Shown here in pieces: positions 25,899 through 26,711 of a stretch of 36,362 nt of DNA. The notes under the pieces were generated by a model that was given only the letters and a program-made list of their open reading frames with translations, searched no databases and was not told the DNA's origin. Source of the DNA: Candidatus Babeliales bacterium (GTDB lineage Bacteria > Babelota > Babeliae > Babelales > RVW-14). A program made the position numbers and the translations under genes. The DNA lies in the NCBI GenBank assembly GCA_044234015.1, contig JBIIJF010000001.1, positions 1 through 36,362 on the forward strand, written 5' to 3'. Numbering within the stretch: the first letter of the stretch is position 1; the number at the start of each line of letters is the position of its first letter.

Positions 25899-26711
25899 AT
25901 GCATTTGATAAAAAAAATATATCTAGTTTTGGCATTTTTGGGCTTGCAAGAAACTGTATCGTTAGAGGCGGCTCTTAGTCCGGAGGTTCCTCTTGATCAG
26001 GAGGATGCTTTTGGTCTGTTCCTCGGTGCTGGGGCAGGGTGCGATGGCGCTTACTTGGGAAAACAAATGCGTTTTGATGATGATTGTGATGGTCACTCTG
26101 ATGATGATCGTGATTATGATTATGATGATGATTCTGATGATGATCGTGATCCTGATTATGATCCTGATTCTGATGCAGAAAGAAAGAGGCCCAAAGCAAA
26201 AACAAAAAAGAGGCCCAACGCAGAAACAAAAAAGAGGCCCGAAGCAAAAAGAAAGAAGCTCAAAGCAGATCACAATGAGCCAACAGAAGAGGCGAGCAAT
26301 CCAGATCTCCTCTCTAGTCCAAGCCATACGGATGGTTCTGGTAAAATCACTCGATCATGTCCTTTATGTGGTTATACTACGACAGATCGGAGCAATTTTA
26401 GTAGACACGAACGTATTCATAAAGGCCCAGAAGGTAAGCCGTATCAATGCCCTCGCTGTCCTCGTCGTTTTGTGCAATCGACCGGTTTGAACAGTCATAT
26501 AGGAAACATCCATCCACAACTTGCTAAAAAGACGTACAAATGTTTCGACGAACGATGTAAATTTACATCAACCAGTCTTCATGCGATGGGGCGCCATAAA
26601 ATAGCTCATTTAAAGGGATACATCCATATGTGTGACAGATGTGGGTGGCTTGGTCTTAATAAAAACACTCTGAAGACTCATCGAAAGCACGCACATATGC
26701 TTGTCGAATAG
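25899..26711 (+). CDS. Signal-peptide-bearing protein with poly-Asp tract, basic KRP tandem repeat (NLS-like) and four classical C2H2 zinc fingers
   Basis: The signal-like N-terminus is MHLIKKIYLVLAFLGLQETVSLEA. Residues ~58-93 are Asp-rich (DDDCDGHSDDDRDYDYDDDSDDDRDPDYDPDSD). The basic repeat is KRPKAKTK-KRPNAETK-KRPEAKRK. The four fingers have canonical spacing: CPLC-x12-HERIH, CPRC-x12-HIGNIH, CFDERC-x12-HKIAH and CDRC-x12-HRKHAH. The inter-finger linker is KGPEGKPYQC. Confidence 0.85.
   Translation: MHLIKKIYLVLAFLGLQETVSLEAALSPEVPLDQEDAFGLFLGAGAGCDGAYLGKQMRFDDDCDGHSDDDRDYDYDDDSDDDRDPDYDPDSDAERKRPKAKTKKRPNAETKKRPEAKRKKLKADHNEPTEEASNPDLLSSPSHTDGSGKITRSCPLCGYTTTDRSNFSRHERIHKGPEGKPYQCPRCPRRFVQSTGLNSHIGNIHPQLAKKTYKCFDERCKFTSTSLHAMGRHKIAHLKGYIHMCDRCGWLGLNKNTLKTHRKHAHMLVE
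26184..26255 (+). repeat. 3 x 24-nt in-frame tandem repeat inside the zinc-finger gene
   Basis: The copies are aagaggcccaaagcaaaaacaaaa, aagaggcccaacgcagaaacaaaa and aagaggcccgaagcaaaaagaaag at 26184, 26208 and 26232. They encode KRPxAxxK x3. Confidence 0.9.

Follow-up and report, generated by a model that had tools for sequence, protein, structure and literature searches.

A four-finger C2H2 zinc-finger protein with a predicted export signal in a Dependentiae bacterium: a candidate nucleomodulin

A stretch of 36,362 nucleotides of DNA from Candidatus Babeliales bacterium (GenBank assembly GCA_044234015.1, contig JBIIJF010000001.1, positions 1 to 36,362; hereafter the window) was analysed with respect to one gene, for a protein with four C2H2 zinc fingers (ZF gene and ZF protein), to which an earlier inspection made without database searches (the sequence-only reading) had drawn attention. 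The ZF gene is intact and located at 25899..26711 on the plus strand, and encodes 270 amino acids (aa) from an ATG start, the stop codon being included in these positions. Its product carries, from the N-terminus, a predicted Sec signal peptide, an acidic tract, a basic repeat resembling a nuclear localisation signal (NLS) and the four-finger array; the layout of export signal, acidic domain, NLS and DNA-binding array is, by analogy, that of a transcription-factor mimic. The gene is proposed to encode a lineage-specific, eukaryote-like effector of a Dependentiae bacterium, and hence a candidate nucleomodulin, a proposal on which our judgement is evenly balanced.

The four fingers were located on the plus strand at 26358..26420 (finger 1, aa 154-174, C-x2-C-x12-H-x3-H, CPLCGYTTTDRSNFSRHERIH), 26448..26513 (finger 2, aa 184-205, C-x2-C-x12-H-x4-H, CPRCPRRFVQSTGLNSHIGNIH), 26541..26609 (finger 3, aa 215-237, C-x4-C-x12-H-x3-H, CFDERCKFTSTSLHAMGRHKIAH) and 26631..26696 (finger 4, aa 245-266, C-x2-C-x12-H-x4-H, CDRCGWLGLNKNTLKTHRKHAH). 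A search by regular expression for the spacing C-x2-4-C-x12-H-x3-5-H gave exactly four tandem matches in the ZF protein; the background was 0.16 matches per shuffled whole window in six frames, a single match was found elsewhere in the real window (antisense to another gene), and none in 138 kb of related Dependentiae loci. The helix positions -1/2/3/6 are occupied by D, S, N and R in finger 1, Q, T, G and S in finger 2, S, H, A and R in finger 3, and N, N, T and T in finger 4. A hydrophobic core, formed by an aromatic residue past the second Cys and by Leu or a comparable residue at helix +4, is present in each finger (Y/F in finger 1, F/L in finger 2, F/M in finger 3 and W/L in finger 4), and its columns line up with those of animal fingers in the four-finger alignment, the aromatic core residue being at x2, not x4, in fingers 1, 3 and 4. 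The Pfam profile zf-C2H2 (PF00096) was matched at 32.2 bits against the cut-off of 25.2 (E 1.2e-7; best stretch, aa 153-174), and comparison of aa 140-270 with the PDB by phmmer gave Aart (1.6e-20), ZNF568 (6e-20) and CTCF (2e-16).

Upon modelling by AlphaFold2 with a 17-row alignment of matched four-finger segments, four beta-beta-alpha units were predicted with a pLDDT of 87.3 (the single-sequence model, made without alignment, reached 41.6 and was discarded). The best Foldseek matches to this model, all with a probability of 1.0, are the DNA-bound zinc-finger arrays of Aart, ZBTB24, CTCF, ZBTB7A and ZFP568. The net charge of the finger region is +15. Judged from sequence and model together, the four fingers are of the classical eukaryote type, and nucleic-acid binding is predicted. 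The sequence-only reading had proposed four fingers with eukaryotic spacing, distinct from the Ros/MucR type, and had suggested the zf-C2H2 profile as a check; the spacing was found at all four fingers (C-x2/4-C-x12-H-x3/4-H), the profile score is above its cut-off, and the Pfam match, the PDB sequence matches and the predicted fold are all those of classical C2H2 fingers. A regulator of the Ros/MucR type was ruled out, as ROS_MUCR is absent among the 20 Pfam families listed (E up to 10) and the fingers are four in number with eukaryotic spacing. Ros/MucR proteins are likewise bacterial, coordinate zinc by Cys2His2 and bind DNA, but they are cytoplasmic regulators whose one atypical finger is embedded in a globular domain of larger size.

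The predicted Sec signal peptide is encoded at 25899..25970 on the plus strand (aa 1-24, MHLIKK / IYLVLAFLGL / QETVSLEA, followed by A). As read from the sequence, its arrangement into n-, h- and c-regions is consistent with a Sec signal peptide, with two Lys residues in the n-region, a 10-residue hydrophobic window of mean Kyte-Doolittle value 2.68, and small residues in the c-region. The same layout, in which a hydrophobic stretch about 10 residues long comes after basic ones, is common to two ankyrin proteins, a USP-like (UCH) protein, a C39-like peptidase and several orphan proteins of the window; Ffh, ClpB, HisRS and Jag are without it. A short Gly/Ala-rich spacer separates the leader from the acidic tract, which is located at 26073..26177 on the plus strand (aa 59-93, 20 Asp in 35 residues) and is encoded by GAT-rich 18/36-bp repeats. 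The basic KRPxAxxK repeat follows directly at 26178..26264 on the same strand (aa 94-122, ERKRPKAKTKKRPNAETKKRPEAKRKKLK; 24-bp unit, 3.2 copies), and a Ser/Pro-rich linker joins the basic segment to the fingers. TRF identified the 24-bp repeat at 26183-26258 with 86% matches. As tandem repeats encode both the Asp tract and the basic segment, both appear to have been expanded by local slippage inside the ZF gene.

The basic tract as a whole (aa 94-125) contains 16 Lys or Arg in 32 residues. A bipartite NLS consensus, taken as (K/R)(K/R)-x10-12 followed by at least three basic residues in five, was matched at four offsets (aa 95, 96, 103 and 104), and among 25 window proteins only the ZF protein and one other, the C39-like peptidase, gave a match. 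The unit KRPxAxxKK resembles the NLS of nucleoplasmin, KRPAATKKAGQAKKKK. The leader resembling a secretion signal, the poly-Asp tract of about 35 aa and the three NLS-like KRPxAxxK units described in the sequence-only reading are all present, the leader being of the kind carried also by the neighbouring eukaryote-like proteins. Like the ZF protein, the Peptidase_C39_2-like protein (12327-13730, plus strand) has a leader that ends in SLEA, and a very basic tract, KKMAQKKKRRSPVKKRVQKKPQQKNKRPGKR, follows it.

The ZF gene is a genuine bacterial gene of native appearance with respect to codon usage, GC content, a Shine-Dalgarno-like site, a terminator and its recovery in a second assembly. Its GC content is 0.429 (window range, 0.41-0.51) and, with the remaining genes of the window as reference, its codon-adaptation index is 0.750 (window range, 0.696-0.802); neither window composition nor codon analysis gave any signal of recent transfer. 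A Shine-Dalgarno-like GAAGGG, read from the sequence, is located at 25885..25890 on the plus strand, 8 nt upstream of the ATG, and comparable G-rich purine motifs precede Ank1, Ank2, hyp247, UCH, Lon and MurJ. The stops of the ZF gene and of lon converge on a perfect 22-bp hairpin with A/T-tract flanks (26711..26759; dG -41.5 kcal/mol, z -12.3), which adjoins the ZF stop codon and is likely a bidirectional terminator common to both genes. The core of its stem, GGGCTGC/GCAGCCC, is present also downstream of lon in a relative, which suggests that the ZF gene uses the other face of the terminator of lon. The product is called identically in two assemblies, and a Logan contig from a separate assembly matches with 100% identity over 25723-27658, spanning the junction between the ZF gene and lon. 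An assembly chimera or eukaryotic contamination was ruled out by this identity at the junction together with the host-like GC content and codons, the Shine-Dalgarno-like site and the terminator of lon.

Among the homologues of the window's Lon, those with 63-71% identity bear the names Candidatus Dependentiae, Babeliales or candidate division TM6, and the closest ones, at 78-87% identity, belong to metagenome-assembled genomes (MAGs) recorded as unclassified 'bacterium'; judged from the names of these homologues, the genome is that of a member of Dependentiae (TM6/Babeliales). The window carries the housekeeping genes trmD, ffh, kup, mnmE, clpB, hisS, lon and murJ, and eukaryote-like genes for two ankyrin proteins, a USP/UCH-like protein and an RRM protein. 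All characterised Dependentiae are intracellular parasites of protists (PMC4378268, PMC4776705, PMC6561590), and the eukaryote-like proteins with signal peptides in their genomes have been taken as exported to the host (PMC4378268, PMC6561590). Signal peptides are present on most of the eukaryote-like proteins in published Dependentiae genomes, and in Chromulinavorax destructans on 44% of coding sequences and 78% of ankyrin proteins (PMC6561590). A type II secretion system (T2SS) is the sole secretion system to have been found in the phylum (PMC4378268), and its components are core to TM6 genomes (PMC4776705). With a eukaryote-type domain behind a predicted N-terminal signal peptide, the ZF protein fits the class of secreted eukaryote-like proteins of Dependentiae. 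None of the Dependentiae genome papers cited here (PMC4378268, PMC4776705, PMC6561590) makes mention of C2H2 domains, and the literature searched contained no report of zinc-finger proteins in Dependentiae and no characterised bacterial C2H2 nucleomodulin. Among the eukaryote-like proteins of Kistimonas, zinc-finger proteins are enriched (PMC12491435).

In the proposed mechanism, the signal peptide would direct the ZF protein through the Sec pathway into the periplasm, from which the T2SS or outer-membrane vesicles would discharge it into the protist. There the KRPxAxxK repeat would serve as a classical bipartite NLS for importin-alpha/beta and allow entry into the nucleus, where the four fingers would bind nucleic acid, most likely DNA, and the poly-Asp tract could, as an acidic module, activate transcription or interact with chromatin. 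What the analysis establishes is the gene with its domain identities, predicted fold, host phylum, native-looking expression signals and orphan status; passage out of the bacterium and into the host, import into the nucleus, binding of DNA and the effect on host transcription are all steps that we infer.

Several observations weigh against this mechanism. No T2SS genes were found in the window, and a zinc-finger protein would have to cross the outer membrane and any host vacuole, while its zinc-thiolate sites would need to survive passage through the periplasm. A basic tract behind the leader is present also in the C39-like peptidase, and the KRP repeat may have a role other than nuclear import. 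The ZF protein is a singleton without orthologues from which purifying selection could be gauged, and an adjacent copy of the same architecture has decayed. The linkers between the fingers are KGPEGKPYQ (9 residues), PQLAKKTYK (9) and LKGYIHM (7), none of them the canonical 7-residue TGEKP; the first of these had been described as TGEKP-like, a description that fails, as it is two residues longer and none of the three linkers conforms to the consensus. The canonical linker is typical of DNA-reading arrays, although not obligatory. With linkers of this kind, contiguous reading of DNA is less expected, and binding to RNA or protein would be possible.

The linkers lead to the alternative that the ZF protein is exported to the host but is not a nuclear DNA-binding protein, its fingers binding RNA or a host protein, or its acidic and basic tracts acting in the cytoplasm or nucleolus. 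C2H2 fingers can bind RNA and proteins. Besides the linkers, this explanation is favoured by weak Pfam matches of the acidic and basic low-complexity segments to the nucleolar or spliceosomal families YL1, Rrn6 K-rich and Cwc15, and by the RRM protein and other eukaryote-like proteins encoded nearby. The best matches in both sequence and structure are, however, DNA-bound arrays, and the bipartite NLS consensus is matched four times; we consider such a role in the host rather unlikely.

With respect to its origin, the ZF protein is an orphan and lineage-specific, as judged from sequence searches. No full-length homologue was found in a word-indexed database of 5.8 billion proteins, in 1.84 billion cluster representatives subjected to a full HMMER scan, or in GTDB genomes, JGI metagenome contigs and IMG/VR (2.9 million viral contigs), and a phage collection gave no match. 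The scan of representatives yielded 22,081 matches, all through the finger region, of which the top 150 are long poly-finger proteins, below which short bacterial relatives, if any, would rank. The possibility raised beforehand that close homologues are widespread in free-living bacteria is thus contradicted, as no close homologue was found in any database searched. The best four-finger alignments are at about 30-36% identity, and those looked up are poly-zinc-finger proteins of frog, amphioxus, bichir and weevil; since these best matches represent generic domain similarity, no donor is named. Multi-finger arrays are found also in giant viruses of protists (Pithovirus, Marseillevirus, Hyperionvirus, AaV and BsV), with Foldseek E values of 1e-5 to 1e-7 to the ZF protein. 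The architectures of these viral proteins differ, and no close relative was found in the 2.9 million viral contigs; giant viruses of protists are a possible alternative gene pool for the ZF gene. Capture from a eukaryote, as claimed in the sequence-only reading, remains plausible from the type of domain, but no donor was found, giant viruses carry such arrays, and the codon usage is host-like.

Three relatives whose Lon is 78-87% identical have ABC-MurJ-MsbA on one side of lon in common with the window but carry other genes downstream of lon, and a more distant MAG, GCA_041443025.1, keeps the order HisRS-GT-X-Lon, in which X is a 270-aa open reading frame (ORF) on the opposite strand without Pfam match. 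This X equals the ZF protein in length (270 aa), the two being compared by length and Pfam only. Conserved synteny was ruled out, the ZF gene being absent from the same slot in relatives. The presence of different genes between GT and lon in the relatives indicates that the gap between them behaves as a variable slot.

Upstream of the ZF gene, a decayed gene of the same architecture was identified at about 25353-25751 on the plus strand by three-frame translation across its frameshifts and stops. Its order is an acidic tract, read as EDDYDDSDFKDD, a basic stretch with KRP, FKCDYCAKT (25574-25600), HERIHTGEKQFACP (25645-25689) and a second finger remnant, and it has a TGEKQ linker, of a kind absent from the intact ZF protein. 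The remnant matches Pfam zf-H2C2_2 at 27.1 bits, below the cut-off, and the public assembly calls no gene there. Comparison with the intact gene gave no DNA similarity above shuffled controls, and comparison with its protein gave a weak BLASTP match (E 0.009), so that recent tandem duplication is not supported. The remnant is, as judged from sequence, a decayed relative of the same architecture and not demonstrably a recent duplicate: of the decayed duplicate postulated in the sequence-only reading, the decayed gene is real, but its origin by duplication is not demonstrated. An 89-aa ORF lies antisense to the remnant (25562-25831, minus strand) with a signal-peptide-like start, MKRQVFLALQSYAISLIAGTS; it is not called in the public assembly and could be due to chance or be the remnant of a divergent gene start.

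The slot and the remnant bear on a second alternative, that the ZF gene is a functionless transient acquisition, derived from a eukaryote or virus, inserted in the variable slot and heading for decay like its neighbour. The neighbouring gene with this architecture has already become a pseudogene, no homologue was found in the databases searched, and the contents of the slot between GT and lon differ among relatives. On the other hand, the frame of 270 codons is intact, with start codon, Shine-Dalgarno-like site and terminator, and in-frame expansion of repeats has given a regular NLS-like array. In addition, the codon usage is fully host-like, which suggests long residence of the ZF gene. A transient acquisition is given a low probability. 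Even as a decaying orphan, the ZF gene would still document a variable 'effector slot' between GT and lon, with genes coming and going.

A third explanation, improbable in our estimation, is that the ZF protein acts in or on the bacterium itself, either as a membrane-anchored or cytoplasmic DNA-binding regulator or as a nucleoid condenser by analogy with Hc1/Hc2 of Chlamydia, which are lysine-rich and histone-like. The lysine-rich tandem repeats of the ZF protein resemble histone-H1-like bacterial proteins, and an internal Met57 with upstream GGGAAA could yield a form without the leader. The nucleoid of Dependentiae is condensed in the infectious stage (PMC6561590). The positive-inside rule, however, places all that follows the hydrophobic segment on the far side of the membrane from the cytoplasm, the leader is like those on the ankyrin and USP-like proteins of the window, no similarity to Ros/MucR or any other bacterial regulator family was found in Pfam and NCBIfam, and a tract of 20 Asp fits poorly with a nucleoid compactor. 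A periplasmic or surface metal binder, in which the poly-Asp tract and the Cys/His sites sequester Zn or Ca without binding nucleic acid, agrees with the predicted signal peptide, the 20 Asp, the 16 Cys/His ligands and the sole, very weak NCBIfam matches, to Asp-rich surface-adhesin repeats, but is very improbable, because the fingers have the spacing, the hydrophobic core and the predicted fold of fingers that bind nucleic acid and the basic NLS-like repeat would have no role.

The proposed effector was compared with known systems of related design. With the eukaryotic arrays of TFIIIA/Kruppel type (CTCF, ZBTB7A/24 and ZNF568), the ZF protein shares finger spacing, core and beta-beta-alpha fold, and with some animal proteins of two-finger repeats it shares the alternation of H-x3-H and H-x4-H and the extended first linker. 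It differs from the eukaryotic arrays in being bacterial, in its Sec leader, in having only four fingers, in the lack of a TGEKP linker and of a KRAB, BTB, SCAN or ZAD partner, and in resembling no particular protein (about 30-36% identity). The closest functional precedents, by analogy, are secreted C2H2 nuclear effectors of Magnaporthe. In the rice blast fungus Magnaporthe oryzae, the effector MoHTR2, which has a C2H2 domain and a signal peptide, goes to the nucleus of the host (PMC12488382); MoHTR1 and MoHTR2 have, as predicted for the ZF protein, a signal peptide, a C2H2 domain and an NLS, and are secreted by the pathogen to the host nucleus (PMC12488382). The likeness drawn here is one of layout, and the fungal effectors differ in coming from a eukaryotic pathogen with a eukaryotic secretion route, MoHTR2 having a single zinc-finger domain.

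Transcription activator-like (TAL) effectors of Xanthomonas/Ralstonia and the nucleomodulins AnkA, LntA and RomA are of analogous design, in that a signal for export and an NLS are combined with an acidic domain and a module binding DNA or chromatin, for action in the host nucleus (PMC4168661). They differ in the use of 34-aa repeats with repeat-variable diresidues (RVDs) instead of C2H2 fingers and of type III, type IV or type I secretion instead of Sec/T2SS, and share no homology. Identity as a TAL effector was ruled out, as the ZF protein has neither RVD repeats of 33-35 aa nor a corresponding Pfam match, and the T2SS is the only system reported for the phylum (PMC4378268). The producer of the ZF protein agrees with the host-associated or intracellular habit required of the nucleomodulin class, as judged from its assignment to Dependentiae by Lon and from the ankyrin, USP-like and RRM genes in the window.

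Tandem arrays in bacteria were sought by tblastn of the finger region against 72,556 plasmids. A single record was matched, the Burkholderia sp. MS455 plasmid NZ_CP041780.1, with 30% identity over 84% of the finger region. Between 27175 and 39483, this plasmid carries four adjacent genes annotated 'C2H2-type zinc finger protein', of which the three fully translated have 5, 16 and 16 classical fingers, and the cluster is immediately downstream of a 12-kb 'cycle-inhibiting factor' (Cif-like) gene, a candidate for host targeting. The Burkholderia proteins are bacterial tandem classical arrays like that of the ZF protein, but differ in size (716 to about 1,500 aa), in the number of fingers (5-16), in a common N-terminal region of about 500 aa, in the absence of a Sec-like leader, and in being plasmid-borne in a free-living or plant-associated betaproteobacterium. 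To our knowledge, they are uncharacterised. The cluster may represent another bacterial zinc-finger effector family and, if the ZF protein does read host DNA as an effector, could illustrate that strategy a second time and independently. The statement in the sequence-only reading that a tandem array is unusual in bacteria is right as to rarity but was overstated, given the four multi-finger C2H2 genes on this plasmid. Tandem classical C2H2 fingers in bacteria are accordingly not new; what would be new is a eukaryote-like secreted effector, or candidate nucleomodulin, whose DNA-binding module is undescribed for bacterial effectors.

Several other proteins of the window were observed. A 141-aa orphan (31662-32087, minus strand) combines an N-terminus like a signal peptide with a single degenerate finger of C2H2-like type (CLDCDACFFSEQDLVKH...CH) and a tail that looks like a coiled coil; it reaches only E 0.043 with Pfam zf-C2H2, and may be a second secreted finger protein of the same genome. 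A 616-aa protein (20515-22365, minus strand) has a signal-peptide-like N-terminus, a UCH/USP match of 28 bits against the cut-off of 23.9 and Gly/Ala/Pro-rich low complexity, and is a candidate for an effector directed at host ubiquitin. The adjacent genes at 6959-7537 and 7576-8019 (plus strand) encode two small ankyrin-repeat proteins whose leaders resemble signal peptides. The small RRM-domain RNA-binding protein (17944-18369, minus strand; RRM_1, 73.5 bits) is conserved beside clpB in relatives, with two copies in one of them. Full-length ClpB (13817-16384, plus strand) is directly followed by a 460-aa protein (16458-17840, plus strand) that matches only the C-terminal half of ClpB/ClpA (model positions about 560-840) and looks like a stand-alone second AAA+ module. 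TrmD, the tRNA m1G methyltransferase (1340-2716, minus strand), carries, as a fusion, a second RNA methyltransferase domain of the SAM-dependent kind, Methyltrn_RNA_4. An ORF from about 34995 to 36362 on the plus strand, of more than 450 aa, runs off the end of the window with a signal-peptide-like start, MSFVKKYIMHTSLLIFLVTFCITEAG; the public product is 778 aa in length and has no family assigned.

Dependentiae are widespread obligate parasites of protists, and hardly any of the proteins by which they manipulate their hosts have been characterised. The nucleomodulins known from bacteria rely on ankyrin repeats, SET domains or TAL repeats, or are small adaptor proteins, and no nucleomodulin using C2H2, the commonest eukaryotic DNA-binding module, was found in the literature searched. 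It is suggested tentatively, as a possibility that we are inclined to doubt, that the ZF protein is the first bacterial effector to read host DNA by a classical C2H2 array, a Sec/T2SS-exported, NLS-bearing mimic with an acidic domain that reprograms protist expression. A four-finger protein that is secreted and brings along an NLS and an acidic domain would be a compact candidate for reprogramming the transcription of a protist host directly. If the proposed role is true, a transcription-factor module of eukaryote type would have been domesticated by a bacterium.

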